From Clostridia bacterium (GTDB lineage Bacteria > Bacillota > Clostridia > Oscillospirales > CAG-272), in assembly GCA_017398145.1 (NCBI GenBank), contig JAFQHD010000108.1:4456-68455 (forward strand): a stretch of 64,000 nt of DNA, written 5' to 3'. The notes beneath the pieces are model-generated. The model had not been told where the DNA came from. It ran no database searches and worked only from the letters and a program-made list of their open reading frames with translations. Position numbers and translations under genes: made by a program. Positions 4,222-59,749 of the stretch are shown piece after piece (positions within the stretch are counted from its first letter, which is position 1; each line of letters begins with the position of its first letter).

Positions 4222-5943
4222 ATGAGTATTATCGATTTAAGGCTTAGTTTAGCGGCTTGTCTCAAGAAGGGAATTGACAGTATCAACCCCGATGCAGCAC
4301 TTACCGCCTCTGAAATTGCCGATATGTTCGAGTATCCCCCGGACGATAAGATGGGCGATCTGGCTCTGCCCTGCTTCAAGTTCGCAAAGACACTTCGCAA
4401 GGCTCCCCCTATGATAGCAAACGAGCTGTCCGCATCTCTCAAGGATGCAGAGGGCGTAGCCGAGGTACAGGTAGCAGGCGGCTATCTGAATATATTTATC
4501 GAGAGAGCTTCCTTTGCCCGTGACACCGTGGCAGAGGTAAACTCTAAGGGTGAAGCCTACGGCAGGCTGACTGTGGGTGAAGGCAAGACCGTAGTTCTTG
4601 ACTATTCTTCTCCCAATGTGGCAAAGCCCTTCCATATAGGACATTTAGGAACCACCGTTATCGGTCACTCCCTTAAGATGCTTCACGAGTTTGCAGGCTA
4701 TAAGTGCGTCGGTGTCAATCATTTAGGTGACTGGGGTACCCAGTTCGGTAAGCTTATCGTTGCATACCGCAAGTGGGGTAATAAAGAAGAGATCGAGGCA
4801 GGCGGCATTGATGCCCTCGTTGCCATCTACGTTAAGTTCCACGAGGAAGCAGAAAAGGACGAGACCCTTGAGGATCAGGCAAGAGCAGAGTTCACTGCTC
4901 TTGAGGCAGGGGATGAAGAAAATCTTAAGCTCTGGAAATGGTTTATCGAGATCTCTATCGAGGAATACAAGAAGACATATGCACAGCTCGGTATCGAGTT
5001 TGACAGCTATGCAGGCGAGAGCTTCTACTATGACAAGTGTGCTCCCGTTATCGAAAAGCTGAAGGATGCGGCTATTACAAAGGTAGACGACGGCGCTACC
5101 ATAGTTGATCTCTCCGAATACAATATGCCTCCCTGTCTTATACTTAAGCGTGACGGCTCCACCATCTACGCTACCCGTGATATTGCAGCGGCTCTCTACC
5201 GTAAGGAGACCTACGACTTTGACAAGTGTATATATGTAACAAGTGCAGGTCAAAGCCTCCACTTTGCACAGTGGTTCAAGGTGGTTGAGATGATGGGCTA
5301 TGACTGGGCAGACCGTCTTATCCATGTTCCCTCCGGTACAGTTAGCATCGACGATGCAAAGCTTGCTACCCGTACAGGTAAAGTTGTGCTGATAAAGGAT
5401 CTCTTCGCTCAGGCGACAGATAAGGTTCTTGGTATCATGAACGAAAAGAATCCCGATCTTGAGGGCAAGGAAGCTGTTGCCGAGGCGGTAGGCGTTGGTG
5501 CGATAGTATTCCACTATCTGTCCAACAACCGTATCAAGGATATCAACTTCAAGCTTGACGATGTTCTTAAGTTCGACGGCAACACAGGTCCTTACTGTCA
5601 GTACACCTACGCACGTTGTGCTTCTATCCTCAGCAAGGCAGGAAGCGTTGCGGACAACTGCGATTACACAGATATAACCGAAGAGGAATATCAGCTTGCA
5701 AAGACTCTTGCAAGGTTCCCCGAGGCGGTAGAATCTGCTCTTGAGTCAAGCGAGCCTATGATGATAACCCGTTACATCCTCGATGTTGCGACAGCATTCA
5801 ACCGTTTCTATCACGAGTGTCAGATACTGTCAGCCGAGGATGAAAAGATAAAAGAACGCCGTGTGGCGCTTACCAATGCAGCACATACAGTTTTAGGCTC
5901 AGCCTTTGGTCTTATCTGCATGAAGAAAACAGAAAAAATATAA
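4222..5943 (+). CDS. argS: Arginine--tRNA ligase
   Basis: ORF 4174..5943. HIGH-type motif (PFHIGHLG) and ArgS N-terminal and anticodon-binding regions. AGGAG at 4209-4213 favours the ATG at 4222. Confidence 0.92.
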   Translation: MSIIDLRLSLAACLKKGIDSINPDAALTASEIADMFEYPPDDKMGDLALPCFKFAKTLRKAPPMIANELSASLKDAEGVAEVQVAGGYLNIFIERASFARDTVAEVNSKGEAYGRLTVGEGKTVVLDYSSPNVAKPFHIGHLGTTVIGHSLKMLHEFAGYKCVGVNHLGDWGTQFGKLIVAYRKWGNKEEIEAGGIDALVAIYVKFHEEAEKDETLEDQARAEFTALEAGDEENLKLWKWFIEISIEEYKKTYAQLGIEFDSYAGESFYYDKCAPVIEKLKDAAITKVDDGATIVDLSEYNMPPCLILKRDGSTIYATRDIAAALYRKETYDFDKCIYVTSAGQSLHFAQWFKVVEMMGYDWADRLIHVPSGTVSIDDAKLATRTGKVVLIKDLFAQATDKVLGIMNEKNPDLEGKEAVAEAVGVGAIVFHYLSNNRIKDINFKLDDVLKFDGNTGPYCQYTYARCASILSKAGSVADNCDYTDITEEEYQLAKTLARFPEAVESALESSEPMMITRYILDVATAFNRFYHECQILSAEDEKIKERRVALTNAAHTVLGSAFGLICMKKTEKI

Positions 5944-6182
5944 TGAATTGACATCTTCGATATCATGAATTGCCGTTGGCATGAATTGTGCTACGCACAT
6001 GAATTGCACCTTTGGTGCATTAAGGAAACTTTTCGGCAAGCCGAAAACTGATTTAATTATAATTGATTTTTGCTATAGCAAAAATCTTCCTTAATGAAAG
6101 ACCTCGTCTTTCAATTCATGACGGTGTGCCGTCAATTCATGATGACAAAGTCATCAATTCATGCACCTACGGCGCAATTCAT
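5943..6182. repeat. Symmetric array: 4x CATGAATTG, central hairpins, 4x CAATTCATG, with eight palindromic variable spacers
   Basis: ATGAATTG at 5943, 5965, 5981 and 5999. CAATTCAT at 6112, 6133, 6155 and 6175. Every spacer is a 4-8 bp stem with a 3-4 nt loop. Central inverted repeat 6018-6027 / 6087-6096. Confidence 0.9.
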
Positions 6183-6219: not shown

Positions 6220-6942
6220 ATGTCCGGACATTCCAAATGGAGTAACATTAAGCACAAGAAAGAAAAGAGTGACGCTGCCAAGGCGAAAATATTTACCAAG
6301 GTAGGTAAGGAGATCGCAGTTGCGGTTAAGGCAGGCGGTCCCGACCCCGTTTCCAACTCCAAGCTTAAGGAGCTTATCGCAAAGGCTAAGTCCTTAAACG
6401 TTCCCAATGACAATATCGACCGTATCATCAAGAAGTCCAGCGGTGCTGATGCCGTTGATTACGAAGAGGTAGTATACGAGGGCTACGGTCCCAGCGGCGT
6501 TGCAGTTATCGTTGAGGCTACCACCGATAACCGTAACCGTACAGGCGGTAATGTAAGACACTTCTTTGATAAGTACGGCGGAAACCTCGGTCAGAGCGGC
6601 TGCGTGTCCTTTATGTTCGAGGATAAGGGCGTTATCATCGTTGAGAGAGAAAGCGGTGCAGACGAGGACAAGCTGATGGAGGATTCTCTTGAGGCAGGTG
6701 CAGAGGACTTCGTTGCTGACGAAGAGGTATTTGAGATCTACACCGTTCCCGCTGACCTTATGGCAGTTAAGGAAGAGCTTGAGGCTAAGGGCTACGTTAT
6801 CGCGTCTGCCGAGAAGGACAAGATCCCCTCTAACTACGTTACCCTCACCGACGAAGAGGATATCAAGAAGATGAACCTTCTTATCGAGCATCTCGAAGAG
6901 GACGACGATATCTCCGAGATCTACCACAACTGGGAAGAATAA
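6220..6942 (+). CDS. yebC: YebC/PmpR family DNA-binding transcriptional regulator
   Basis: N-terminus MSGHSKWSNIKHKK is diagnostic of the family. AAGGAG RBS upstream. Confidence 0.92.
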   Translation: MSGHSKWSNIKHKKEKSDAAKAKIFTKVGKEIAVAVKAGGPDPVSNSKLKELIAKAKSLNVPNDNIDRIIKKSSGADAVDYEEVVYEGYGPSGVAVIVEATTDNRNRTGGNVRHFFDKYGGNLGQSGCVSFMFEDKGVIIVERESGADEDKLMEDSLEAGAEDFVADEEVFEIYTVPADLMAVKEELEAKGYVIASAEKDKIPSNYVTLTDEEDIKKMNLLIEHLEEDDDISEIYHNWEE

Positions 6943-6972: not shown

Positions 6973-7057
6973 AATGCAGAATGCAAAATGCAAAATGCAG
7001 AATTGAGGAGATTTTTGTTGCATTAATGCAACAAAAATTTCATTACATTATGTAATG
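6973..7057 (+). repeat. Heptad array (AATGCAG/AATGCAA x4), then TTGAGGAG, a 11-bp hairpin and a second palindrome
   Basis: 7-nt tandem repeats at 6973-7002. Hairpin ATTTTTGTTGC-attaat-GCAACAAAAAT at 7011-7038. CATTACA-tta-TGTAATG at 7041-7057. Confidence 0.85.
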
Positions 7058-14582: not shown

Positions 14583-14676
14583 ATCTTTTATGTATTATTT
14601 TACCTTGAAGATTCTTGCCAGTATAGGGGCAAGGAAACGGGGTGATTTTACAACTACTATTTTCATAATATGCTCC

Positions 14677-14835
14677 TTATATGTTTGTAAAATAAACTAC
14701 GCCTGCGCTGATTATGATAAGCGATTCTATGACTACCAGCACAGAGCAGGGCAAAAAGTAGGTCAGCAGGATACCCGCACCAAAGGCAAGGGCAATATAT
14801 CCGGCTGAACGGCAAATACATCTTACTGCGCGCAT
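14677..14835 (-). CDS. Small hydrophobic protein (52 aa), hypothetical
   Basis: Internal ATG of ORF 14677..15006, preceded by GGAAGGGA. Two predicted TM segments. Lies downstream of rsgA on the same strand. Confidence 0.45.
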   Translation of the reverse strand: MRAVRCICRSAGYIALAFGAGILLTYFLPCSVLVVIESLIIISAGVVYFTNI

Positions 14836-14896
14836 AACAAAATCCCTTCCGACATTCTCTAATAACAGAGTATGACAGAAGAGATATTTTGTGATA

Positions 14897-15793: not shown

Positions 15794-15798
15794 ATAAA

Positions 15799-15848
15799 AA
15801 TTCTCAATTCTTAATTCTCAATTTAAGGTTACTTTTGCCCTGCAAAAG
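15799..15848 (+). repeat. Heptad array (AATTCTC AATTCTT AATTCTC AATTTAA) plus a hairpin, immediately upstream of the rsgA start
   Basis: 7-nt repeats at 15799-15826. Hairpin CTTTTGC-cct-GCAAAAG at 15832-15848. Confidence 0.8.
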
Positions 15849-15901
15849 CTTCATATATATTATATTTATAACAAAAATATTTGTCAAGTAAAGGAAAAAA
15901 G

Positions 15902-17090: not shown

Positions 17091-18944
17091 ATGAAGATTA
17101 TAAGAAATATACTTTTCGGGGACAGGCATCCTCTGTTACGCAGTGCCTTGTCGGTGCTGATACACGTTCTTTGCCTTATGACCCTGGACGTATCCTTCAG
17201 GGTCATATATGAGAAGAACAACACCTCTCCCTTGCCGGACTTGGTCCCCTTTTACACCTCTCTTTTCTGGTGTATAATATTAGCGGGCTTTGCTCTTATA
17301 TTGCCACGGATACTCAGACGTATATACGTCATTGTGACAACTCTGTTCTTTGGCGTACTGGTTATAGTTCACGCCTGTCTTGACAGCTTTTTCGGACAGT
17401 ATATGTCCTTTTCTTCTGTCATGTTTGCGGATGACGGCGCGGCATTCTTTGACCTGTCCTATTTCAAGATACCTAAGAAGCTTATAGCGCTTATCTTGCT
17501 GAGTATAGTGCTGTCTGTTATTGCAGCTCTTATTCTTGCAAAAAGTAAGAAATATCTTATTTCTGCCCTTGCCGCAATCCTCTTGGTCGCCGTAGGTATT
17601 ACGGGAATAGCTCTGTACAGCAACAGCTATTTCAAGGGCGAGAGCGGTGGTATAACCTGGGAGAGCACCAAGAGCCCCGCAGATCATTACGACGATTTTT
17701 CGGATTATCATCTCTGCATGCATATGTGCGGACTATATCAGTATACCTTCCGTGATCTGTACGTAAGCACGGGTGCGGTGGATACCGTAGAAAAGCTTAT
17801 AAACAAGGGACGTATAGACGAGCTTGATGAATATTATTCCTCAAAGCCCATTGATCCCGATAACGAAATGACGGGTATCTTCAAGGACAAAAATCTCCTG
17901 CTTGTTCAGCTCGAATCGATAGATACCTGGATGGTCAACGAGGTGTCTATGCCCTCCCTTTATTCGGTAACGAACAAGGGTATCAATTTCACGAGCTTCT
18001 ATGCTCCGAAATATCTTTGGGCATCCACCTTCAATACCGAGAACGTGGTGAATACGGGGATGATATCTCCTATGAACTCCTCCAAGACCGGATATTTTAC
18101 CAAGACCGATTATCCCTATTCCATGCCCAATATGTTCAAGGCAGAGGGATATACCGTAAACAGCTTCCACCGAAGCGGCAGAGGGATCTATAACCGCGGT
18201 GACGTTCACGAGAACTGGGGATATACCAAGTATTACAGCGGGGCAGAGATGAAGCTCAGCGACCTTGATATGGATTCGGCTCTCATAGAGGCGTACGATA
18301 TGTATGCACCCGCAGAGAGGTTTATGTCCTTTATAATCACCTATACGGGACACGGTCCCTATAACGCCGAACACGAGGCGGTAAAGAAATACGAGGATAT
18401 AATAAGACCGAAGCTTCCCGAGGACGCAGAGGACGAGTATGTATGGGCTCTCTGTTACGCTTACGAGACTGACGTATTCATCGGCTCTCTTATCGAGAAG
18501 CTGGAGGCAGAGGACAGACTCAAGGATACGGTGCTTATCTTCTACACCGACCACTATGACCACTATGTGACGGATAATGCCATACTTACCAAGTATAAGG
18601 GGACCTCGGATACCAACCTGATGTGCAACGTGCCCTTCGTTATATATTCCGAGGAGCTTGAGCCCATGACGGTGGATAAGGTCACGGCTACATATGACAT
18701 CCTGCCTACGGTGGTAAACCTTTTCGGTATGGATAACGACGGCAGATACTATATTGGTAACGATGCCTTTTCGGATAACGGAGGATACGTAATCTTTGCA
18801 GACCGTTCTTGGTATGACGGAAGCGTATATTCCAAGAGCGATACAATGTCCTTTGATCTGATAGAACAGCGAAGCACCGAGATCGACGAAAGGCTTAACG
18901 CCTGCTGGGATTCGATTAAATTTGATTATTTTAAAGATAAATGA
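17091..18944 (+). CDS. LTA synthase / sulfatase-family membrane protein
   Basis: About 5 N-terminal TM helices, then an extracellular alkaline-phosphatase/sulfatase-like domain (LESID, YTGHGPY, FYTDHY). Confidence 0.75.
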   Translation: MKIIRNILFGDRHPLLRSALSVLIHVLCLMTLDVSFRVIYEKNNTSPLPDLVPFYTSLFWCIILAGFALILPRILRRIYVIVTTLFFGVLVIVHACLDSFFGQYMSFSSVMFADDGAAFFDLSYFKIPKKLIALILLSIVLSVIAALILAKSKKYLISALAAILLVAVGITGIALYSNSYFKGESGGITWESTKSPADHYDDFSDYHLCMHMCGLYQYTFRDLYVSTGAVDTVEKLINKGRIDELDEYYSSKPIDPDNEMTGIFKDKNLLLVQLESIDTWMVNEVSMPSLYSVTNKGINFTSFYAPKYLWASTFNTENVVNTGMISPMNSSKTGYFTKTDYPYSMPNMFKAEGYTVNSFHRSGRGIYNRGDVHENWGYTKYYSGAEMKLSDLDMDSALIEAYDMYAPAERFMSFIITYTGHGPYNAEHEAVKKYEDIIRPKLPEDAEDEYVWALCYAYETDVFIGSLIEKLEAEDRLKDTVLIFYTDHYDHYVTDNAILTKYKGTSDTNLMCNVPFVIYSEELEPMTVDKVTATYDILPTVVNLFGMDNDGRYYIGNDAFSDNGGYVIFADRSWYDGSVYSKSDTMSFDLIEQRSTEIDERLNACWDSIKFDYFKDK

Positions 18945-19760: not shown

Positions 19761-19820
19761 AATTCTCAATTCTCAATTCGTAATTAAATGTGAAAAGTCG
19801 GTTCATTTGAACCGACTTTT
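19761..19820. repeat. Heptad array (AATTCTC x2, AATTCGT, AATTAAA) plus a bidirectional terminator hairpin
   Basis: 7-nt repeats at 19761-19788. Hairpin AAAAGTCGGTTCA-tt-TGAACCGACTTTT at 19793-19820. Confidence 0.85.
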
Positions 19821-20224
19821 CAATTTCTATCAAAATATTCATAGCACGCGAAGCGGATCACATCCTCGGTTACATTGAAATGCTCTGCCAATTCCCATAC
19901 CTCGGTGATGCCTTGGGTAAACGCCTTCTCTAAATTTCCCTTTGGCAAAATATGCTCGATCATCCACATATTTGCCTTATGTTCGCAGCGGCTTCTGGTC
20001 TCAAGGGGAGAGTAGGGTCGGTAGAAGGCTCCCGTCATACAGTGGCCGATCTCGTGAGCAAGATGAACCTTGCGCTCAGGCTCCGTCATATCTCCTTCAT
20101 CCATGATTATATATTTTTCTTTCCCGTCCTCGAAGGATACAGACTTATTAAGCGGCAGTCTGCAATAATCGAGGACTATTTCATTTTCATCACAAAACAC
20201 TGCACATTGTGTGCTTGTTCTCAT
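19820..20224 (-). CDS. ImmA/IrrE-family metallopeptidase
   Basis: HEXXH motif (HLAHEIGHCM). 134 aa, immediately downstream of an XRE repressor gene. Confidence 0.85.
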   Translation of the reverse strand: MRTSTQCAVFCDENEIVLDYCRLPLNKSVSFEDGKEKYIIMDEGDMTEPERKVHLAHEIGHCMTGAFYRPYSPLETRSRCEHKANMWMIEHILPKGNLEKAFTQGITEVWELAEHFNVTEDVIRFACYEYFDRN

Positions 20225-20231
20225 TTGATTA

Positions 20232-20564
20232 CTACTCCTCTTTACTGTGTCTTTTCTTTATCAGCTCTACGGCAAACATAGCTTCCTTCCACATTTCGTC
20301 GGTGACCTCTCCGTCCCCCCCGAATAGAGCAAGCTTGATATCGTTATCGGTGACAGTGCTCTTTGCTGCAGATTCCTTGCCCGTTGTCAGATAGTCGAGA
20401 GAAACACCGAAATGGTCGGCTATCTTTTTAAGCTTATCCTGCTTGGGGGTGGATTTTCCGTTCTTCCAATCGCTGATAGTGGCGGGGGCTATACCCGTGG
20501 CTTTACATACCTGATATGCGGTCATACCGTTCTTTTGTAACAATTCAACAAAAATCTCATACAT
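20232..20564 (-). CDS. XRE/ImmR-like HTH repressor (110 aa)
   Basis: HTH segment MTAYQVCKATGIAPATISDWKNG. Paired with the ImmA gene. Confidence 0.85.
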   Translation of the reverse strand: MYEIFVELLQKNGMTAYQVCKATGIAPATISDWKNGKSTPKQDKLKKIADHFGVSLDYLTTGKESAAKSTVTDNDIKLALFGGDGEVTDEMWKEAMFAVELIKKRHSKEE

Positions 20565-20952: not shown

Positions 20953-21261
20953 ATGAAAAATATTGATTTCAATAAAGTTATAATAACCGGCAAAGCCAAG
21001 GAGAATCCTGAGTTAAAACTGACTACAACAGGTATAGCTGTAACAAATTTCATCCTTGTAAGCGAGGGTGTCAAATCAAATGAATATATAGATGTTACCG
21101 TATGGGGAGAGCTTGCGGAAAAGGTGTATAAGGAAATAGACCCCGACCGACGGATAATGGTGGAGGGGAGGCTTCACCGTACTGCCTCGGAGGAGGGCTC
21201 CTACGGAAGACTTGAGATCACGGCAAACCGAATATTCGGAATAGGAGGAATGTATGATTAA
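20953..21261 (+). CDS. SSB-like OB-fold protein lacking the acidic C-terminal tip (102 aa)
   Basis: Pattern N(K/R)VxLxG ... ELR.T..G..V..F.LA ... W typical of the SSB core (NKVIITGKAKENPELKLTTTGIAVTNFIL ... VTVWGELAE ... VEGRL). GAGGAG RBS. Confidence 0.65.
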   Translation: MKNIDFNKVIITGKAKENPELKLTTTGIAVTNFILVSEGVKSNEYIDVTVWGELAEKVYKEIDPDRRIMVEGRLHRTASEEGSYGRLEITANRIFGIGGMYD

Positions 21262-21466
21262 GTACACAGAGGATATATATACTACCTGTCCCTTTTACCT
21301 CAAGGAGGCGAGCTCACGCCTCATCTGTGAGGGGATCCCTGAGGGAACAAGTAACGTAACCGTATTCACGAACAGCCTTCTCAAGGCAAGACATCAGAAC
21401 AGATATTGCCGTAATGATTACGGTGCCTGTGCTCTGTGTAAAGCTTTAATGAGTAAATATGACTAA
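21254..21466 (+). CDS. Hypothetical Cys-rich protein (70 aa)
   Basis: Overlaps the previous gene by 8 nt. Six Cys residues. I recognise no family. Confidence 0.5.
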   Translation: MIKYTEDIYTTCPFYLKEASSRLICEGIPEGTSNVTVFTNSLLKARHQNRYCRNDYGACALCKALMSKYD

Positions 21467-21500
21467 AGAGGTTTTGAGCCTTGTGCTCAAAACCTCTTTA
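21464..21500. terminator. Perfect 16-bp bidirectional terminator that includes both convergent stop codons
   Basis: TAAAGAGGTTTTGAGC-cttgt-GCTCAAAACCTCTTTA. Confidence 0.9.
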
Positions 21501-22175
21501 GTCATTTAAGCTGATCTCCAACCCATCATACGCAACCTCAATACCGTAGGGCTCAAGGTCACGGCAGATAATATCATGGTCGTCGTGAAGTCCGCAGGAC
21601 ATATGGCTTATGCAGAAACGCTTGATATGCTCCTTGAGAGTTTTTTTCATTTCAATGACCATATTGATATTGTTATGCTCAAAGATACGGTAGTCGCCGT
21701 CCTGATGGCCTACGGTGCAGTCAAGGACGATAAGATCAACGGGAGCGGTATCTATTATCATCTGCACCTCATCGTAGAGAAGCCATGCGGAGTCGAGAGC
21801 GTAATAGATCTTACTCTCTCCGTCGTCAAAGAGATAGTGCTTTGTGGGAACACGGTGATGACCCGTTGAGGCTTTGATCTTAACATCTTCAAGGATTATC
21901 TCATCATCAAATTCAATGAATCTTGCACCCTTTGATTCAAGAAAAGTAAGGGTATCCGAATTAAAATGATCCTTATGCTTATGGGTGTTGATGATATATT
22001 TTATACTTTCGGGAGCAATACCGAATTTTTCAAGAGCGTAGGGAACGGTAGGCCCGGGATCGATAAGGATAGTGTCGTTTATAAGAGCAGAAGCGTTGCC
22101 TCTGTATTCGTCGCCGTGGTCACGGCGCTCAGGCGACCAGTCGGCGGCACCTGTGCCTAAAAATCTGATTTTCAT
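21498..22175 (-). CDS. MBL-fold metallo-hydrolase (225 aa)
   Basis: HxHxDH motif (THKHKDH). Confidence 0.8.
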   Translation of the reverse strand: MKIRFLGTGAADWSPERRDHGDEYRGNASALINDTILIDPGPTVPYALEKFGIAPESIKYIINTHKHKDHFNSDTLTFLESKGARFIEFDDEIILEDVKIKASTGHHRVPTKHYLFDDGESKIYYALDSAWLLYDEVQMIIDTAPVDLIVLDCTVGHQDGDYRIFEHNNINMVIEMKKTLKEHIKRFCISHMSCGLHDDHDIICRDLEPYGIEVAYDGLEISLND

Positions 22176-22876
22176 AATATATAGTCCTCCCCGTCATTGG
22201 GGTAGAGAACTGTAAAAGCTGCTTTTTGTGCTTTGATGTTCTCATATTTTTCAGGCGGCATAACATGTACGAATGCCACCTTATCAACCTTTAACTTATT
22301 GCATTTTGAAACAACCGTTTCGGCATCAAAGTGGGCAGCTTCTATAATAAGCATATCAGCCTCAATATCCGGAAGATCGATTAGTGAAGGAGAAAGATCG
22401 CTTGTGATATAAACCCTCCTGCCTTCGGCTTCGATAAGAAAGCTGTAACAGGGAAGACCCTTCATATGATCGTTCTGATATGAAGTTACCTTAAGTATAC
22501 CGTCATCATAGAAAATTCCTTCCTTGATGAGCTTAAAATTAATTCGGGTGCTGTCCTTATTGCCTAATTGCATATAGGTATAGGTCTTAAATGCATCTAT
22601 ACCCCTTTCCTCCGAGAGATAAATATCACAGCGGATATTAAAGAATTCCGCTAAATTTATCATATCGTTAAGACCGTTCATATGGTCACCGTGGAGGTGG
22701 CTTATAAAGACGGTCTTTATCCGTGACATATCATATTGGGAAAAGGACAGAATGTCGGTTACAGGCGCACCTGCATCAAAGAGGTAGGCGTTTTCGCCTA
22801 CCTCTATAAGGATGCTTTGCTGATGTCGGTTTTTATAAGGGGCACCGAAGCCGGTGCCCAGAAATCTTATATTCAT
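22172..22876 (-). CDS. MBL-fold metallo-hydrolase (234 aa)
   Basis: HxHxDH motif (SHLHGDH). ATGA overlap with the downstream paralog and TAATG overlap with glnA. Confidence 0.8.
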   Translation of the reverse strand: MNIRFLGTGFGAPYKNRHQQSILIEVGENAYLFDAGAPVTDILSFSQYDMSRIKTVFISHLHGDHMNGLNDMINLAEFFNIRCDIYLSEERGIDAFKTYTYMQLGNKDSTRINFKLIKEGIFYDDGILKVTSYQNDHMKGLPCYSFLIEAEGRRVYITSDLSPSLIDLPDIEADMLIIEAAHFDAETVVSKCNKLKVDKVAFVHVMPPEKYENIKAQKAAFTVLYPNDGEDYIL

Positions 22877-26059: not shown

Positions 26060-26088
26060 TTGACAAATCATAGCATTAATGATAAAAT
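26060..26088 (+). promoter_or_regulatory. Promoter (TTGACA-17-TAAAAT) with an embedded ATCAT/ATGAT inverted repeat, a likely TetR operator
   Basis: TTGACA at 26060-26065 and TAAAAT at 26083-26088. Inverted repeat 26067-26071 / 26079-26083. Confidence 0.55.
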
Positions 26089-26116
26089 AACAAATGATAT
26101 ATAACAATAGATATAT

Positions 26117-26689
26117 ATGGAGATAGACATGCCGCCTAAGATTAAAATTACAAAAGAGGACATAATAAAAACAGCCGTCGGGCTTGTGCGTAAGAACGGA
26201 ACGGGTGCCGTCAACGCCCGTGCAATTGCCGCAGAATTGAACTGCTCCACTCAGCCCGTGTTTTCAAATTTCGCAACCATGGACGAGCTGCAGAAGGCTG
26301 TAATAAACGCCGCATACGATATTTATCTTGATTTCCTTAAAAACGAGGCCGAAAACGGAAAATATCCGCAGTACAAAGCCTTCGGAATGGCTTATATACG
26401 CTTTGCTGAGGAAGAAAAGGAGCTTTTCAAATTTCTGTTTATGAGGGACAGAAAGGGCAGGGAGCTTGTACCGTCCCCCGATTTTACCGCTTCTGTTGAG
26501 ATAATTATGAAAGCCAATTCAGTTACAAGAGAAAAAGCGGAGCTTATGCATCTTGAGATGTGGAGCTGTGTTCACGGTATCGGCACTATGCTTGCCACCT
26601 CGTTTTTATCACTTGATTCTGAGCTTATAAGCGAAATGCTAACCGATATATACCAAGGAATACGGGTAAGGCATTTGCCGAAGGAGTAA
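26117..26689 (+). CDS. TetR/AcrR-family transcriptional regulator
   Basis: N-terminal TetR HTH (IIKTAVGLVRKNGTGAVNARAIAAELNCSTQPVFSNF). Confidence 0.85.
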   Translation: MEIDMPPKIKITKEDIIKTAVGLVRKNGTGAVNARAIAAELNCSTQPVFSNFATMDELQKAVINAAYDIYLDFLKNEAENGKYPQYKAFGMAYIRFAEEEKELFKFLFMRDRKGRELVPSPDFTASVEIIMKANSVTREKAELMHLEMWSCVHGIGTMLATSFLSLDSELISEMLTDIYQGIRVRHLPKE

Positions 26690-33363: not shown

Positions 33364-34204
33364 AAAGAACCGTATAGAGGGTGGCACTCTCTATCTTGTA
33401 GCCACACCTATAGGTAACCTCTCCGACCTTTCGGACAGAGCGTATAAGGTGTTAAGCGAGGTTGATTTTATCGCCGCAGAGGATACAAGAAACACAGGCA
33501 AGCTCTTATCCGCCATAGGTATATCTAAGTCTATGGTATCCTACTACGAGCATAACAAAAAGTCTAGCGGCGAGCATATCTTAAAAAGACTTCTTAAGAG
33601 ACAGAGCTGTGCTCTTGTGACCGATGCGGGAACTCCCGCCATCAGCGACCCGGGCGAGGATATCGTACGTGACTGCATAGAGGCAGGTATAAAGGTGACA
33701 AGCGTTCCCGGAGCTGCGGCAGTTATAGTTGCTCTTACTCTTTCGGGCATGAACACCCGCCGCTTTGTCTTTGAGGGATTTTTGCCTGTCAAGGGAAAAG
33801 AACGGAAGGAAATGCTGACCGAATTATCCACCGAAAAGCGTACTCTCGTTCTCTACGAAGCACCTCATAAATTAAAGAATACCTTAGACGATCTCCTTGA
33901 ATATTTCGGCTCCGACCGTCGAATAGCTCTCTGCCGTGAGCTTACAAAGCTCAATGAAGAGGTAATGCGCTGTACTTTATCCGATGCCGTGGAGTATTAC
34001 GGTCAAAACGACCCCAGAGGCGAGTATGTTCTCGTCATAGAAGGAGCAAAAGGGGAAAGCATTGGTGCGTTTTGGCAGGATATGGCTGTAGATACTCATA
34101 TCGAATACTATATCTCTCAGGGATTGAAGAAGATGGATGCCATAAAGCAGGTTGCTAAAGACCGAGGGGTTGCGAAGAACGAGATATATAAGCAGACAAT
34201 ATAA
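33344..34204 (+). CDS. rsmI: 16S rRNA (cytidine1402-2'-O)-methyltransferase
   Basis: Tetrapyrrole-methylase fold with the characteristic N-terminus LYLVATPIGNLSD and AEDTR. Confidence 0.9.
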   Translation: MSSQSNEKNRIEGGTLYLVATPIGNLSDLSDRAYKVLSEVDFIAAEDTRNTGKLLSAIGISKSMVSYYEHNKKSSGEHILKRLLKRQSCALVTDAGTPAISDPGEDIVRDCIEAGIKVTSVPGAAAVIVALTLSGMNTRRFVFEGFLPVKGKERKEMLTELSTEKRTLVLYEAPHKLKNTLDDLLEYFGSDRRIALCRELTKLNEEVMRCTLSDAVEYYGQNDPRGEYVLVIEGAKGESIGAFWQDMAVDTHIEYYISQGLKKMDAIKQVAKDRGVAKNEIYKQTI

Positions 34205-34270
34205 GTGCAAAGTGCAAAATGCAAAGTGCAAAGTTTAGGAGGATTTCCGTACTTTGGTACGGAAATCTCC
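34205..34270 (+). repeat. Heptad array (GTGCAAA x3 / ATGCAAA), then TTTAGGAGG and a 13-15 bp hairpin
   Basis: 7-nt repeats at 34205-34232. Hairpin 34238-34270 (GGAGGATTTCCGTAC-tttg-GTACGGAAATCTCC). It fills the rsmI/dapA convergent gap. Confidence 0.85.
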
Positions 34271-36287: not shown

Positions 36288-39200
36288 TTATTCTACCGTG
36301 AAATTAACACGGTCGTATGTTCCGTCAATATATCTTACGTAGAGCGTATATTCACCTGCAGGGAGAGCTGCGCCATAGGTGTAGATGTTGCTGTCACCTA
36401 ACTTTGCGCTCGTCATACCGTAGTAGAGGTTGTTCTTGACCTCTCTGTAGGTGGAGTGTATTCCCTTGCCTATGTAGAGATCCTTGATATTTTCAAGGTC
36501 GCAGATATACGTACGTTTACCGTCGGATACGATTGAAGGAGTATCTGCAAGGGTTACCTTCACGCTTGCCTTTCTGAAGCTGCCGTTGTAGCTGCCGATA
36601 GTCAGAGCCGCAAACTCAGCGCCTGTTCCTTCGTAAGTGATGTCGGTAATATTACAGCCGTCAAAGGTTCCCTGTGCTATCTCAGTTACGTCCTTTGTTA
36701 TCTTAACGCTTGTGACGTTGGTTCCTCTGAACGCCTTTGCGGCGTTGTCGGTAGCAAGAGTTACCTCGCCCGTGAGGTTTGTACAGCCGTCAAACGCCTG
36801 TGTCAGATCCTCGATGCCGATAAGCTCGGGAGCGGAGGTAAGAGCAGTACACTTATAGAAGGCACCCTTAAGTATCTTAACACTTTCGGGAAGCTCGGGA
36901 GTCTCTGTAAGAGAACTGCATCCCCAGAATGCGTAGGTCATATTCTCTACTCCTTCGGGTATCGCGGGAGCAGATGTGAGAGCCGTACAATTCTTAAAGG
37001 TATTGTAAAGCACCTTTACACCCTCGGGAATTGCGAGAGCCTCGGTCATATTGGTACAGCCTGCAAAGGTCTTATAGAGCTGTGTTACGGGAAGTCCGTT
37101 GACCTCTGCTTCTATTGCACCGTAGGAGCTCAGAGTCTTGTCGTTTACTACTGCGTTCCAACCCTCGGGTGCGCCTGTTGCGTGATTGCTGTAATAGGTG
37201 TAGGTGTAATCACCGATAACCACCTGCTGACCGTCGGTGGGCTGAGCCGCACCGCAGGCACATACGCCGTCAATATAGATATGTCCGGTCACAGGCTCCT
37301 TTTCGGTATTGGAATACTCGTATACGTAATTTTCTTCACAACAGCCGTTTATGATATTACGGTATACGATATCGCCCTCTGCGTTGAGAGTGGGATATTC
37401 GTCTGTACCTATAGTCTGCGTCCAAACGGTAGGGATCACGGTTCCTATATATTCCCAGGTCTCCTCGTCGTAAACGTCCTCCTCGGGCTGAGCCGACTGG
37501 AGTAACCAGGTTATTTCACCGCTTGCTAACTGCTCTGCAGTTCTGCCGCCTTTGTCGTTGGCTTCAATCGCAAGATAATAGCTGTTGGTAAAGTCTTGTG
37601 CTATCTGGTTCTTCGTCGAGAAGTAGCCTGACTCAACGATACCGAGATTAAGACAGTTGGCTACGGGGTTGCCGTCACTGTTTCCTGCAATACCGCCCGT
37701 GTTGATAGTACCTGTAATATGTCCGGTATTGATACAGTTTACGATCTCACCGCTGTACATATTGCCGACGATACCGCCGGTGGAGCTGCCGGAATGATAG
37801 AAGCTTACGTCACCTGTATTGCTTGACTTGTAGATACCGCCGCCTATAAGGTAACCCACGAGACCGCCCATATCTCCCGATCCCACTACGGTCAGATCCG
37901 AGTGACAGTTGGTGATCACACTTTCGGCATTGGCAATAAGCGAGCCGACTTCACCGTCTGCTCTTAAATAACCGTTGGTGAGCTTGATGTTGGAAATGGG
38001 GTAATTATACATTGTGTTACCGAAAAGACCTGCCATATCCGCCTCGGGATCGTTCATATAAAGACCGCTTACCGTATGGTTGCGACCGTCAAAGGAACCG
38101 GTATAATAAGCATAGCCTTTACCGATGGGAGTCCAACTGCGAAGCTCGACTGCAGTGTCCTCTGCAGAGTAGCTTCCGTCCTGAGCAAATGTATAGCCGG
38201 GGTTAAGGTCGATGTCGGCTGTAAGCACTGCGTCACCGGTCACGGTGTTCCAGGTGTTAACGCTTCTTGCAAACCAGAAGAGATGTCCCGCCTTGGAAAT
38301 TTCGTAACGGTAGTTTTCTTCATCGAGATAAGCAGGCTCGTAGCCGCCGCATATTACGCAGAAGCCTTCTGCATCAAAGCTGTGGGCTTCGGTAGTGCTG
38401 TCGCACGCACCGCATACGCATACAAGCCAATGCTCGGTGTCGTTAAAATCATATTCAGCAAAATCGTGAGGCTCGGTGATTATCTCGCTGTCACAGCATA
38501 CGTGATATAAAGTATGAGTTCCCGTTTCCTCGTCGTAGAGGTAATAGGTCTCCTCGCTTGTATGGTTGTTCATATCGTAATCACCGAAGGAGTTGCCGCA
38601 GGTGGTACAATATTGTCTGTTCTGACAATCTGCCTCGTGTCCTGAGCAGGGCTGAGTTTCGGTGACGTTATACATCTCACATACCTCGCGTGTACAAACG
38701 TATCTGATATGATAAGCTTCACCCTCTACCGCCGTCCACTCAGAGGGAACGTGATAGCTGTCCTCTTCACTTAAAAGAGGAGTGTTGGAGTAATACATAT
38801 TCGTATTACCGCAGTCGTAGCCTGCGTAAACGGTTGCACCGCCAAGCACGGGGTAAGGATCGGTTCCGATGCTCTGTCCCCAGCTTTCGCCCAGAAGGTA
38901 AGCAACCTCTCCCGACTCAAACTGTTCAGAGGTCTTTGCACCGTTATCGTTTTCGGTATCTGCAAGATAATAGCTGCCCTCGGGACATATGCCGCTTGTG
39001 ATACCGCCGATCTCGCCGCTGTCGGTTACGGCGTTTGCCATACTGAAGCAGTTGTTTATCGAAGCCGAGCTGTCATTCATATTGGTACGCGCACCGACGA
39101 TACCGCCGACACCGCTGACGCCGCTGACATCGGTATTAATAACGAAGCAGTTTGTGATCTCGGATGCAGAGATACCTGCAATACCGCCTACCGAGTTTTC

Positions 39201-41948: not shown

Positions 41949-41975
41949 ATATTTTTCCTCCTGAGAGTTTGTTTT

Positions 41976-42644
41976 TTAGGTTTGTGACTCGAGATATGCA
42001 AGCATATTTGAAATGACGTTTTGTGCTATAGTCGGATAATCGAACTTTGATACGAACTCTATTGCTTCGCTTATCTTTTCGTCCGGAACACGGTAGACCA
42101 AAAACGTGGTCTCAAGGAAACGTGCTACCTTTCTCTCCATTGTGAAATACATATCGCAGGGTACCGTCATAAAGTTACGCATAATTCCTGCCGATGCTAT
42201 TTCGTATTCGTAGAAATCCTTTGTTTCAAGGTCGGGAAGATGCTCCTTAAAAATATTTTCGAGCTTATGCGTGATCGCGTGATATATTATCGAAGAGGTT
42301 TTAGGCAAGGAATAGGACACCGAATACATCTCTCTGATATGCTCACTTGACTCTGCCATATAAAGCTGCAGAGTAGTCTCTGCCGCATAAAACAGTATCT
42401 TGTCGTCCGTAATGCCGCAAAGCATTTGTTCGATGGATTTGAACTGTCCCTCAAGCACGTAGGCAACAAGCTCACAGAGTATGTCCTCCTTTGAGCCGCA
42501 GGCTCGTATCATTGCACTTAAGTTGATACCTGCCTCGTCGGCAATATCCCTTACCGTGGATTCGGTATAGCCCTTTGCCAAAAAGAGCTTTGCCGCCGCG
42601 TTCAGACATTTGCTTTTATTGGCTTGTGTTTTACTTGTTGCCAT
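41976..42644 (-). CDS. TetR-family transcriptional regulator
   Basis: ORF 41976..42734; the ATG at 42644 follows GGAAGAGAG. TetR HTH (CLNAAAKLFLAKGYTESTVRDIADEAGINLSAM). It ends 27 nt before the giant-protein start. Confidence 0.8.
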   Translation of the reverse strand: MATSKTQANKSKCLNAAAKLFLAKGYTESTVRDIADEAGINLSAMIRACGSKEDILCELVAYVLEGQFKSIEQMLCGITDDKILFYAAETTLQLYMAESSEHIREMYSVSYSLPKTSSIIYHAITHKLENIFKEHLPDLETKDFYEYEIASAGIMRNFMTVPCDMYFTMERKVARFLETTFLVYRVPDEKISEAIEFVSKFDYPTIAQNVISNMLAYLESQT

Positions 42645-42668
42645 ATATTTACTCTCTTCCCAAATAAC

Positions 42669-42692
42669 AACGCGTTCCGAAACGCGTTTCGG
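42669..42692. promoter_or_regulatory. Perfect palindromes upstream of the TetR gene, a likely operator
   Basis: AACGCGTT (42669-42676) and CCGAAACGCGTTTCGG (42677-42692, 16-bp perfect palindrome). Confidence 0.6.
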
Positions 42693-42821
42693 TTTGTGTA
42701 TTGGAATTATAACACAGGACTCCGAGTTTGTCAATATTCGGTTTACATTTTGTTTAAAAATCAGCGAAAATTATCTTTGGTTTTCTTGTGAGAACGAAAA
42801 AGATCATATACAATTTCCGTT

Positions 42822-54525: not shown

Positions 54526-55299
54526 ATGGAAATTATCGATACCCACGCTCATTACGATGACAGCAGGTTCGATGGTAATAGAGATGAGCTTATAGCCGAT
54601 GTTTTAAACATCGGCTATATCCGAAATATCATCAACTCATCCTATTCTATCGATTCCGCAAAGGTAGCAAGAGAGCTTTCAAGAAAATATCCGCAGTTCT
54701 ATTTTACCGCAGGCATACACCCCCACGACAGCGGAAAGGCAGGGGATAGGGATCGAGCACTTTTTGAGCTTGAGGGACTGCTGCGTGACCCTAAATGTGT
54801 TGCGCTCGGCGAGATAGGTCTTGACTATCATTACGATTTTTCAGACCGTGACACACAGAAAAAATGGTTTGAGTGGCAGATGCAGTTAGCTGACCGTCTG
54901 GGCGTTCCCGTTGCCATACACGACCGTGAGGCTCACGGCGACTGTATGGATATGGTAAGAAAATATCCCGAGGTCATAGGCGAGTTTCATTCCTTCTCAG
55001 GTTCGGCAGAGATGGCAAAGGAGCTGGTCAAGAGAGGGTGGTATATCTCCTTTTCCGGAGTAATAACCTTCAAGAACGCTTCAAAGATTCTTGAAGCGGT
55101 AAAGGCAGTACCCCTTGACCGCATAATGATAGAAACAGACGCTCCCTACCTTGCTCCCGTACCCAAGAGAGGTAAGGACAACAACTCCGCCTATATGAAG
55201 TACACAGCAGAGGCGGCAGCCAACGTGCTGGGTATGGACGTAGAGGAATTCTGTGCGGCAACCACCGAGAATGCCAAGAGACTTTTCGGCATTAAGTGA
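54526..55299 (+). CDS. tatD: TatD-family metal-dependent hydrolase
   Basis: DTHAH N-terminal motif, plus later HDRE and ETDAPY motifs. Confidence 0.9.
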   Translation: MEIIDTHAHYDDSRFDGNRDELIADVLNIGYIRNIINSSYSIDSAKVARELSRKYPQFYFTAGIHPHDSGKAGDRDRALFELEGLLRDPKCVALGEIGLDYHYDFSDRDTQKKWFEWQMQLADRLGVPVAIHDREAHGDCMDMVRKYPEVIGEFHSFSGSAEMAKELVKRGWYISFSGVITFKNASKILEAVKAVPLDRIMIETDAPYLAPVPKRGKDNNSAYMKYTAEAAANVLGMDVEEFCAATTENAKRLFGIK

Positions 55300-55331
55300 A
55301 TAGAGAATAGTGAATAGAGAATAGTGAATAA
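55297..55331 (+). repeat. Heptad array TGAATAG/AGAATAG x5 bridging the tatD stop and the next start
   Basis: TGAATAGAGAATAGTGAATAGAGAATAGTGAATAA. The tatD TGA is the first repeat unit. Confidence 0.9.
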
Positions 55332-55335
55332 CAAA

Positions 55336-57929: not shown

Positions 57930-57944
57930 TTTACTTTCTCCAAT

Positions 57945-58110
57945 CGTTATTCACTATTCGTTATTCTCTATTCACTATTCACTCTTAAAAAGCATCAGTG
58001 AATAATGAATAGTGAATAGTGAATAGATAATAGTGATGGTTGAAAACTGTTGCTTTAATGCAACAGTTTTCTTCCTTAATTTTGCATTTTTTATTTTGCA
58101 TTTTGCATTT
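57945..58110. repeat. Composite element B: inverted heptad arms, TGGTT, 12-bp hairpin, TTCCTTAAT, (TTTGCAT)n
   Basis: CTATT-type arm 57945-57983 and GAATAG-type arm 57997-58036. Hairpin GAAAACTGTTGC-tttaat-GCAACAGTTTTC at 58042-58071. TTTGCAT repeats at 58081-58110. Confidence 0.9.
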
Positions 58111-59572: not shown

Positions 59573-59600
59573 GATTGTCTCCTATATAATTAATTATTTT

Positions 59601-59749
59601 TTATTCGGTTATTAACTATTCACTATTCGTTATTCACTATTCACTAACTATCGGTTTTATATAACAAGTGAATAGTGAATAGAGAATAGATAATAGTGAA
59701 TAGTGATGGTTGAAAACCGCCAAAGCGGTTTTCTTCCTTAATTTTGCAT
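59601..59749. repeat. Composite element C, with the same architecture as element B
   Basis: Arms at 59601-59646 and 59668-59706. Conserved GTGATGGTTGAAAAC. Hairpin GAAAACCGC-caaa-GCGGTTTTC at 59712-59733 (stem differs from B, pairing kept). TTCCTTAATTTTGCAT at 59734-59749 overlaps the PHP stop codon. Confidence 0.9.

Follow-up and report, generated by a model that had tools for sequence, protein, structure and literature searches.

What is a tandem run of seven-nucleotide units doing between the end of a gene and the hairpin that follows it? The question is raised by a 64,000-nt stretch of Clostridia DNA, here called the window, to which coordinates refer and in which arrays of the heptad ARTGCAR lie 3' of yebC, rsmI and gnd, each followed by a purine-rich motif resembling a Shine-Dalgarno (SD) sequence and by a hairpin. 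A reading made from the sequence alone (the sequence-only reading below) had drawn these loci together with a fourth, after a PHP gene, and had offered three explanations: a dedicated 3'-untranslated region (3'-UTR) module engaging the ribosome, an operator like that of the omega repressor of pSM19035, and a repeat resembling REP or miniature inverted-repeat transposable element (MITE) families. Our answer, held with slightly better than even confidence, is that the ARTGCAR arrays form the variable arm of a genus-specific modular intergenic repeat family, REP/BIME- or BOX-like, with a terminator-type hairpin as its core. This upholds the third explanation in substance, the module being found at non-orthologous loci, in both orientations, with swapped parts, and present or absent among sister species.

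The window's exact proteins were matched on metagenome contigs only, and the relatives of its YebC in a collection of species-representative genomes are metagenome-assembled genomes (MAGs) of uncultured Eubacteriales, Clostridia or Oscillospiraceae from herbivore guts; the host is an uncultured Oscillospirales (Clostridia) genus of herbivore guts. Sequences with L numbers (e.g., L124, L336) are relatives' loci, metagenome contigs or viral contigs used for comparison. L124 shares ~88-93% nucleotide identity with the window and L125 ~82%, and L126 has only the yebC gene in common with it. A metagenome scan with Gnd, in which the best match was 87% identical and uninformative for the window genus, turned up the heptad-rich contig L251 discussed below.

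Heptad arrays in the window

Three consecutive ARTGCAR units, with at most two mismatches, are matched eight times at three places in the window, against 0.01 expected from dinucleotide-preserving shuffles; single units (40 against 31.7 expected) show no enrichment. The arrays singled out by the sequence-only reading are thus non-random by a count against a shuffled model run on the window itself. Repeat periods were surveyed by Tandem Repeats Finder and by a scan of our own, which gave 11 arrays at period 7 against 0-3 at any other period under a looser rule, and, under an equal-probability criterion, 5 at period 7 and 0 at each of the other periods between 4 and 13; no repeat period but 7 is enriched in the window. 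The ten arrays are all confined to the non-coding fraction of the window (~7%) and touch coding sequence only at stop or start codons, an intergenic bias explained by a unit length that is not a multiple of 3. Two marks of the long simple sequence repeat (LSSR) class are found, namely tandem units of 5-11 nt running longer than chance (8 against 0.01; 5 against 0 for period 7) and intergenic bias (10 of 10 arrays).

ARTGCAR is merely one among at least three heptad families in the window, a point that the sequence-only reading had missed. The window scan placed the other two as follows.

15799 and 19761: AATTCTC family
55295, 57944, 57997, 59602 and 59667: AGTGAAT/AGAGAAT family (complement TATTCAC)

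Elsewhere, close relatives hold three genuine arrays in 57 kb, and 77 other Oscillospirales loci hold seven in 1.1 Mb, concentrated in four genomes. The idea that the arrays serve as unstructured spacers was dropped, their predicted unpaired probabilities (0.50, 0.49 and 0.70) being no greater than those of composition-matched shuffles in the same context (0.59, 0.57 and 0.67).

The module and its parts

The loci at issue contain the following features.

6940-6942, plus strand: yebC stop codon TAA
6944-6969, plus strand: hairpin 1, TTACAGGAGGC GAAA GCCTCCTGTAA, with a GNRA loop, directly 3' of the yebC stop and kept in L124 and L125
6973-7003, plus strand: array (AATGCAG AATGCAA AATGCAA AATGCAG)AAT, between two hairpins
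7001-7010, plus strand: linker AATTGAGGAG, in which a degenerate fifth heptad is joined to a purine run (the SD-like motif); its final 3 nt belong to the stem of hairpin 2
7008-7041, plus strand: hairpin 2, GAGATTTTTGTTGCA / UGCAACAAAAAUUUC, 15 bp
34202-34204, plus strand: rsmI stop codon
34204-34231 (34203-34234 with trailing AGT), plus strand: four units AGTGCAA AGTGCAA AATGCAA AGTGCAA, fused to the rsmI stop
34232-34242, plus strand: linker AGTTTAGGAGG, whose GGAG is the lower stem of the hairpin
34238-34270, plus strand: hairpin between the convergent rsmI and dapA-like (DHDPS) genes, GGAG pairing with CTCC
58121-58123, minus strand: gnd stop codon
58111-58079, minus strand: array AATGCAA AATGCAA AATAAAA AATGCAA, one unit degenerate, 3' of gnd
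58081-58071, minus strand: linker AATTAAGGAAG, 3' of the gnd array
58071-58042, minus strand: 12-bp hairpin GAAAACTGTTGC ATTAAA GCAACAGTTTTC
57944-58036: inverted arrays (TATTCAC)n, 14 nt, (AGTGAAT)n, a long stem-loop between gnd and pfkB, part of a composite element
59738-60577, minus strand: PHP gene, stop codon at 59738-59740 (gene calls)
59750-59744, minus strand: one AATGCAA unit within the last codons of PHP (GGA ATG CAA AAT TAA)
59712-59750 including that unit, minus strand: linker AATTAAGGAAG, which includes the stop codon, followed by hairpin GAAAACCGC TTTG GCGGTTTTC
59602-59706: second copy of the inverted heptad-arm stem-loop, part of the element at 59573-59737

Positions and sequences agree with what the sequence-only reading had described, and the related GTTGC...GCAAC hairpin cores that it saw at yebC and gnd are confirmed. 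The layout it ascribed to all four loci holds for yebC, rsmI and gnd, the PHP copy having a single unit inside coding sequence and no array. Placement just downstream of a stop codon is closest at rsmI, where the array is fused to the stop; at yebC it begins 31 nt past the stop, beyond hairpin 1. The hairpin between rsmI and the dapA-like gene is probably a bidirectional terminator. That at 58042-58071 is reached by arrays from both strands, an AGTGAAT array approaching on the plus strand; for the gnd-pfkB spacer as a whole the predicted folding energy is -60.7 kcal/mol (z = -8.9).

A common grammar emerges when 14 modules from the window and sister species are aligned. Columns 8, 15 and 22 always hold A, columns 3, 10 and 24 nearly always T, and in 11 of the 14 modules the four units are followed by ARTT.AGG; four heptads with invariant A1 and nearly invariant T3 thus lead through a degenerate fifth (ARTT.AG) and a purine run to a hairpin. 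The hairpin subfamilies among these modules are highly divergent. As we picture it, the module would consist of four tandem heptads in A-R-T-N-N-N-N register, a degenerate fifth unit merging into a purine-rich linker (ARTT.AGGAG-like), and a terminator-type hairpin whose apex varies and whose stem base (A-tract or GGAGGATTTC) is conserved.

Turnover and dispersal among sister species

The clearest view of how an array changes is given by the rsmI spacer, which aligns without gaps in four species (RsmI 91-100% identity) and has exactly four units in each.

Window (RsmI 100%): AGTGCAA AGTGCAA AATGCAA AGTGCAA
L336 (RsmI 97%): AATGCAA AATTCAA AATGCAA AATTCAA
L337 (RsmI 93%): AGCGCAA AGTGCAA AACGCAA AGTGCAA
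L338 (RsmI 91%): AATTCTC AATTCGC AATTCTC AATTCTC

This turnover makes ARTGCAR and AATTCTC inter-convertible states of one array, and the changes spread with a 14-nt periodicity. The hairpin beyond is maintained across the four species, with 14 pairs, 94.6% of cells paired and compensatory changes at three pairs; in L339 (RsmI 86%) rsmI and the neighbouring gene overlap and there is no spacer. As to slippage instability, conspecific assemblies show no copy-number differences in the arrays and the four units at rsmI are kept in four species, yet the variants are 14-nt-periodic, and together with the concerted change of units these imply cycles of slippage or conversion.

At yebC the array of L124 is identical to that of the window. 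In L125 hairpin 1 is retained, the array is inverted (AATGCA|TTCTGCA TTCCGCA CTCTGCA TT), and both the SD-like motif and hairpin 2 are missing; L126 and all more distant genomes have no element there at all. L124 also carries, in the argS-yebC intergenic region, an antisense module (AATGCAG AATGCAG AATGCAA AATGCAG)AATTATGGAGG-ATTTCTGACC..GGTCAGAAAT, whose array and linker align without gaps to the rsmI modules and whose stem base, GGAGGATTTC/GAAATC, is common to both. The constant orientation reported by the sequence-only reading therefore stands as a property of the window and not of the family. Three subfamilies of imperfect palindromes occur at non-orthologous sites in either orientation, as is typical of REP/BIME elements: the GGAGGATTTC-stem subfamily at rsmI and, antisense, in the argS-yebC region of L124; the ATTTTTGTTGC subfamily at yebC in the window and beside rsgA in L125, where the hairpin ATTTTTGTTGC...GCAACAAAAAT and its 3' tail follow four AGTTAGG units; and the GAAAAC subfamily at gnd and PHP.

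The argS-yebC spacer of the window (5943-6182) holds a second kind of composite palindromic element, in which four copies of ATGAATTG (16-22 nt apart), each with its own, different small hairpin behind it, face four copies of CAATTCAT (20-22 nt apart) in mirror arrangement about a centre made of ATTAAGGAAAC and the hairpin TTTTCGGC/GCCGAAAA. The same spacer is only 20 nt long in L125, and in L124 it holds the antisense ARTGCAR module instead.

Duplication is plainest around gnd. The gnd-pfkB and PHP-gnd spacers contain 77%-identical copies of one composite element of ~140 nt, which runs AATGCAAAATTAAGGAAGAAAAC, a variable-core hairpin, GTTTTCAACCATCACTATT, (CACTATT)n, a spacer and (AGTGAAT)n; as paralogous duplicates, the copies at gnd and PHP make up a single independent case. 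The PHP-gnd element (59573-59737, 165 nt) is absent from three relatives (PHP 82-88% identical), in which the genes there lie 2-16 nt apart, and on this comparison it is evidently a recent local duplication of the element 3' of gnd. It has rewritten the C-terminus of PHP, which ends ...GMQN* in the window and ...NMKIKHKEI* in the relatives. The gnd-pfkB spacer differs in every species compared, with a CACTATT array before the pfkB SD in L333 and AATTAAGAGG plus a yebC-type hairpin in L331. The exact 23-nt module junction AATGCAAAATTAAGGAAGAAAAC had no match in viral contigs.

Within gnd itself (58121-59572, minus strand), 58235-58237 is an in-frame TGA where the conspecifics L285 and L286 read AGA (Arg); the position is conserved, and the change is one of no more than 3-4 that separate the window from them in 21 kb. 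Its cause is either a sequencing error or a nonsense mutation, specific to the strain, of 6-phosphogluconate dehydrogenase.

Arrays with other units are built and placed in a similar way.

15799-15848, plus strand: (AATTCTC AATTCTT AATTCTC)AATT, TAAGGTTA and hairpin CTTTTGC CCT GCAAAAG at rsgA, an architecture like that of ARTGCAR modules
19761-19822, plus strand: (AATTCTC)2.7 directly 3' of the stop of an SDR gene, with a 14-bp terminator hairpin at 19791-19822
55295-55330, plus strand: (AGTGAAT AGAGAAT)2.5, from the tatD stop to 5 nt before the radical-SAM ATG, without a canonical SD

The block at rsgA, ~52 nt of (AATTCTC)3.5, AATTTAAGG and hairpin, is an insertion of the window lineage, absent in L124 and L125, and takes the place of an AGGAG Shine-Dalgarno sequence still present in both. 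In L125, an (AATTCTC)4 array stands between two conserved hairpins where the window has only AATGCGGAATTATGGATG, and a ~240-nt insertion (18455-18705) bears inverted AGTTAGG arrays at its ends. Two observations concern the rsgA start region (15794-15855): the start codon is now preceded by (GAGAATT)3-TTTAT, and a perfect TTGACA-17-TATAAT promoter lies nearby at 15887-15859 on the minus strand. The array at the tatD/radical-SAM junction (55295-55335) has a perfect 14-nt period, without GGAGG and with TGA or TAG in all three frames.

One way to explain such a pattern would involve nothing mobile. Arrays might arise independently at hairpins, by 7-nt replication or repair steps at a stalled palindrome, and the modules would look alike only because the intrinsic terminators of a genome look alike. 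Every array, when read in A-R-T register, is followed within ~4-12 nt by a hairpin or start region, on either strand and on both sides at 58042-58071; the 14-nt-periodic variants point to slippage; many A-tract/T-tract hairpins in the window are free of arrays; and heptamers are the most over-represented long simple sequence repeats in many prokaryotes, for which slippage on the scale of the polymerase footprint has been proposed (Mrazek 2007, as summarised in PMC4679880 and PMC4692102). However, identical units recur at unrelated loci and in distant genomes, non-orthologous loci share both a linker-plus-stem, GGAGGATTTCTG...CAGAAATC, and a 3' tail, TTCATTA.ATTAT, the PHP-gnd element has clearly been duplicated as a block, and slippage alone leaves the fixed number of four units unaccounted for. 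In-situ slippage accounts for the adjacency of hairpins and not for the shared flanks, and we consider it quite unlikely.

In the modular repeat family that we favour, the comparisons show modules duplicated or moved among intergenic regions in either orientation, and parts that recombine, one hairpin occurring with different heptads and one heptad with different hairpins. They likewise show arrays that evolve concertedly in 7- or 14-nt steps and are gained, lost or inverted between sister species. Because 7 is not a multiple of 3, insertion is tolerated only outside reading frames, in practice just past stop codons or just ahead of start codons. Concerted evolution would proceed by slipped-strand mispairing and short-patch gene conversion. 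The hairpin would be the functional part, most likely an intrinsic and often bidirectional terminator or a 3'-end stabiliser, and the heptad arm would have neither a gene-specific nor a ribosome-binding role.

Ribosome and repressor readings

The sequence-only reading had suggested that embedded start codons in three frames and the SD-like motif could engage terminating ribosomes or the anti-SD sequence. Several features lend this some appeal, since ARTGCAR arrays do stand just past stop codons, a GG-containing purine run occurs at a similar distance past the array in most modules, and the corresponding GGAG serves as the true SD of the following gene in a few 5' contexts (pfkB, 57937-57941; phage L092), which may be why the linker motif looks SD-like. 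At rsmI, however, the motif is not kept as an SD (AAGGTAG in L336, AAAGAGG in L338); at yebC and rsmI it is base-paired in the hairpin; and direct reading of the sequence finds only ORFs (open reading frames) of 2-10 codons after it, so that a conserved GGAGG-like motif 5-10 nt before a real ORF was not found. Neither ATG nor GTG occurs in the AATTCTC and AGTTAGG arrays of the equivalent module. In L124 the module runs antisense, and L125 has the yebC array in inverted form. Because the PHP stop lies at 59738-59740, the Met-Gln-Asn-stop mini-ORF once noted there is simply the last four codons of PHP. With a motif that is unconserved as an SD, paired in a stem and followed at SD spacing by no ORF of more than 10 codons, a dedicated ribosome-engaging 3'-UTR module is very improbable, and nothing indicates ribosome engagement in the 3' copies.

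The comparison with an operator for an omega/ribbon-helix-helix (RHH)-type repressor or a partition protein, as in pSM19035, draws on the contiguous 7-bp units, direct and inverted, in 3-6 copies, and in our own comparison TATTCAC/ATTCACT matches the consensus WATCACW at 6 of 7 positions. ARTGCAR matches it at 4 of 7 only, and the gene tables show no RHH gene next to the arrays. These lie past stop codons and beside terminators, and do not form the promoter-overlapping run of two or more contiguous WATCACW units that such an operator has. Multiple unit families, several of them unrelated within one genome, and the switching of units at a locus across species also speak against it, and we find an omega-type operator barely credible. 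The likeness to the omega operators is confined to contiguous 7-bp units, direct or inverted; these are operators of a plasmid-specific regulon, unlike the 3'-UTR sites and the chromosome-wide and phage arrays seen here. The units were also set against the Spo0A, SinR, Fur-type 7-1-7, CodY, Haemophilus uptake and Oct-1 octamer motifs, with partial matches only.

Arrays in phage contigs and distant genomes

Three ARTGCAR units are matched at least 120 times in viral contigs, and several contigs of 58-63% GC have 5-11 arrays each among the matches listed. Portal, major head and tape-measure genes identify L047 and L074 as phages. A 50%-identical homologue of the tape-measure protein is named from an Oscillospiraceae MAG, so these 60%-GC phages may infect the same order as the window host, and no cross-phylum claim is made. 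Among the matches listed, arrays on phage contigs have two units in 12 cases, three in 20, four in 37, five in 2 and six in 2. They begin 2-16 nt past the stops of long ORFs, phage structural genes among them, and in L074 they pair with inverted copies into long hairpins. In another phage group, AATTCTC arrays lie 4-27 nt upstream of the ATG of long ORFs rich in GC at third codon positions (GC3), some without an SD.

Four IMG/VR contigs of 58-59% GC (L363, L340, L351 and L359) are of note here: (AATTCTC)3-5 fills their intercistronic spacers up to an AATT-ATG start, and the ORFs that follow (460-1001 aa, GC3 0.78-0.85) have no Shine-Dalgarno sequence, an arrangement that suggests SD-independent initiation from a heptad leader. 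The terminal ATG of phage ARTGCAR arrays was rejected as a start codon, as an ORF of at least 60 codons comes after no more than 8 of 50 arrays, with a poor GC3 signal; AATTCTC arrays, on the other hand, do stand ahead of real genes.

The permuted, composition-matched control units ARGTCAR and ARCTGAR also gave at least 120 viral-contig matches each and have multi-array contigs of their own. Heptad arrays are therefore general and ARTGCAR is not shown to be special; a special enrichment of ARTGCAR in viral contigs was dropped as a conclusion. In distant Oscillospirales, four of the seven array loci are within one mismatch of the window's three unit families, against 6.6% for random heptads. 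Other units occur in the heptad-rich metagenome contig L251 (62% GC; AATTAGG/AATTGGG/AAAAGGG) and in L185 (AAGATAC), and L201 has AATGCAA; the arrays of these three sequences are mostly inverted pairs 20-140 nt apart, and the L185 pair, being followed by a T-run, forms a terminator made wholly of heptads.

Such data invite the view that the array is a selected, polar, periodic platform on which a clade-specific RNA or DNA binder places one protomer per 7-nt unit, four per array. Candidates that would fit are a cold-shock-domain/OB-fold protein on RNA and an RHH-type protein on DNA, and the platform would mark cistron boundaries in Oscillospirales chromosomes and phages for 3'-end formation, mRNA stability or re-initiation. 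Unit number peaks at four in phage contigs and stays at four at rsmI despite turnover, related units (AATGCAN, AATGAAT) occur in distant Oscillospirales genomes, and phage arrays are co-oriented, usually with the coding strand. The position of phage arrays after structural-gene stops and before long, sometimes SD-less ORFs would suit such a platform too, as would the window arrays that stand in place of the rsgA SD and occupy the tatD/radical-SAM junction. Several unrelated units coexist in one genome, however, and one locus switches between units across species, which makes a single sequence-specific binder unlikely. The inverted yebC array of L125 and the antisense module of L124, the gain and loss of arrays between sister species irrespective of the flanking gene, the similarly abundant matches of the two control heptads in viral contigs (at least 120 each), and predicted structure no less than in the arrays' own shuffles all weigh on the same side. 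We regard the selected platform as unlikely.

Weighing the modular repeat reading

Several observations tell against the repeat family that we prefer. The array-linker-hairpin module has neither of the two features of a MITE, terminal inverted repeats and a target-site duplication, and no transposase was found for it; its mobility is deduced from distribution alone. The window gene tables contain no Y1 transposase, and no GTAG motif was seen. Inverted heptad arrays do form arms in L125 (18455-18705), L201 (12393-12599) and the window (57944-58036), with no target-site duplication identified. Hairpin subfamilies excepted, the flanks of arrays with the same unit are dissimilar, and simple copy-and-paste therefore fails to explain AATTCTC or AATGCAA at unrelated loci. 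Neutral turnover does not predict so sharp a peak at exactly four units as is seen in the window, at rsmI in four species and in phage contigs; together with the recurrence of related units in distant Oscillospirales genomes and the strong co-orientation of arrays within a phage contig, this peak hints at selection on the array itself.

The hairpins, too, lack a clean U-tract and are mostly not called by a simple terminator scan. The stems are strong (12-15 bp, fold z-scores of -8.9 and -9.2) and covary at rsmI, but the T-run is largely paired with the upstream A-tract, and a consensus terminator scan did not call the hairpins at 7008, 34238 and 58042. Rfam, run over the whole window (gathering score; E <= 1), gave nothing at the arrays, and elsewhere only a tRNA and two spurious sub-threshold miRNA matches.

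The favoured account leaves the fixed four units, the few recurring unit types and the phage strand polarity unaccounted for, and these keep the rival of a selected periodic platform alive. In a more speculative proposal, in our view decidedly unlikely, the four-unit array would be a length-constrained polar cis-element with a 7-nt register, read by a conserved Oscillospirales factor in hosts and phages. Its reader could be a cold-shock-domain/OB-fold RNA binder, the ribosome itself or a DNA-binding oligomer. After stops it would act in 3'-end formation or stability, before starts it would be a landing pad replacing the SD, and the unit families would represent specificities. If true, this would be the first function for the long-noticed heptanucleotide excess of bacteria.

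Other features of the window

Some further features were encountered in passing. A conserved small ORF at 14600-14890 (minus strand), absent from the contig gene tables, would encode a hydrophobic peptide of ~50 aa, MRAVRCICRSAGYIALAFGAGILLTYFLPCSVLVVIESLIIISAGVVYFTNI; it sits between a PASTA kinase gene and rsgA, and its DNA is conserved in L125. Two tandem genes of metallo-beta-lactamase fold at 21498-22876 (minus strand) match the Anti-Pycsar Apyc1 family, and a peptidase M78/HTH pair and an SSB gene lie near them (19820-20564, 20953-21261); the region could represent an anti-defence islet or what is left of a prophage. A perfect 20-bp hairpin, TGACTAAAGAGGTTTTGAGC...GCTCAAAACCTCTTTAGTCA, at 21460-21504, 3' of the Apyc1-like genes, gives spurious miRNA matches in a permissive Rfam scan. 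Immediately upstream of the gene starting at 26117, 2.8 copies of the 14-nt direct repeat AATGATATATAACA (26078-26117) overlap a promoter-like site, TTGACA-17-TAAAAT, and may be an operator. Between queA and miaA, a gene for a beta-helix/Glug/LRR_5 protein of 1886 aa and the adjoining TetR regulator gene (36288-42734) form a region of which the beta-helix gene is found again in L336; L337 and L338 have queA directly followed by miaA, and the gene is a lineage-specific insertion.

Comparison with known systems

Enterobacterial REP/BIME and the BOX elements of Streptococcus pneumoniae are small, non-coding, modular elements, dispersed past stop codons and able to form stem-loops that affect termination or mRNA stability; the number and orientation of their modules vary by strain, and the middle module of BOX is tandemly repeated. 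The modules of the window behave alike in being modular, dispersed and variable in orientation. They differ in having no sequence similarity to these elements and a sub-unit of only 7 nt, with no RAYT or other mobilising gene identified and no GTAG-type motif. To our knowledge, none of the described cases of heptanucleotide repeats has an established function or mechanism. If the arrays are neutral, the finding is that of an ordinary genus-specific repeat family.

The exact strings AATGCAGAATGCAG, AATGCAAAATGCAA and AGTGAATAGTGAAT and their complements, for ARTGCAR, AATTCTC and AGTGAAT, were found in no paper of the literature search. The view of the sequence-only reading that this is no described element is accordingly right for the strings, which are absent from that search and from Rfam, and wrong for the class, which has been described (PMC4679880, PMC4692102, PMC2700814). 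In many prokaryotes heptanucleotide units are the most over-represented long simple repeats, and polymerase slippage has been proposed as their origin (Mrazek 2007, as summarised in PMC4679880 and PMC4692102). As these summaries describe them, such LSSRs share with the window arrays a period-7 excess, an intergenic location, a sporadic and lineage-specific distribution and a proposed slippage origin; set against them, the window arrays are short (~4-unit mode), belong to a few recurrent families and form linker-hairpin modules at non-orthologous loci.

In Geobacter metallireducens, four GGACCGG heptads make up each of 49 elements, and five MTYCTGA heptads, arranged as inverted pairs, occur at each of 15 sites; a regulatory role has been guessed for them (PMC2700814). 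Four to five heptads per site, dozens of dispersed sites, more than one family per genome and inverted pairs are all points of resemblance, whereas the phylum differs, the units are GC-rich, some copies lie inside genes, and coupling to a linker and hairpin is not reported (PMC2700814). TAACTGA direct repeats are found in marine Beggiatoaceae, cyanobacteria and Bacteroidetes, and upstream of start codons in Beggiatoaceae (MacGregor 2015, PMC4679880). They too are runs of 2-6 tandem heptamers, intergenic and co-oriented with genes, and often replace the ribosome-binding region, as do the 55295 array, the GAGAATT array at rsgA and the phage AATTCTC arrays. The ARTGCAR arrays differ in standing past stops and before hairpins, in their unrelated units and in the coexistence of several families.

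Cyanobacterial STRR repeats and the GGGAATC / GGGGA(T/C)T repeats of Xanthomonas and Nostoc are likewise heptameric and intergenic, with direct and inverted pairs, and vary in length and sequence at the same locus between close strains, the Xanthomonas GGGAATC repeats doing so locus by locus (PMC4692102). Their units, however, are G-rich and quadruplex-capable and their arrays can be far longer (PMC4692102); ARTGCAR is incapable of forming a quadruplex. STRR units proper (CCCCAGT, TTGGTCA or CAACAGT) belong to heterocystous cyanobacteria, and those found here are ARTGCAR, AATTCTC and AGTGAAT in a Clostridia MAG lineage.

What this lineage adds is an unusually clean comparative series, in which the rsmI array, tied to a covarying hairpin, retains four units through the turnover of their sequence, in which modules are gained, lost, inverted and recombined among species of 82-93% nucleotide identity, and for which phage contigs have equivalent junction arrays. 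Neutral slippage or mobile-repeat dynamics can be tested in it against a selected periodic binding platform. There is also a point for annotation, as modules can replace a ribosome-binding site (rsgA) or rewrite a C-terminus (PHP). Compared with the systems above, the ARTGCAR module is a new family within a known but unexplained class of intergenic heptanucleotide arrays.

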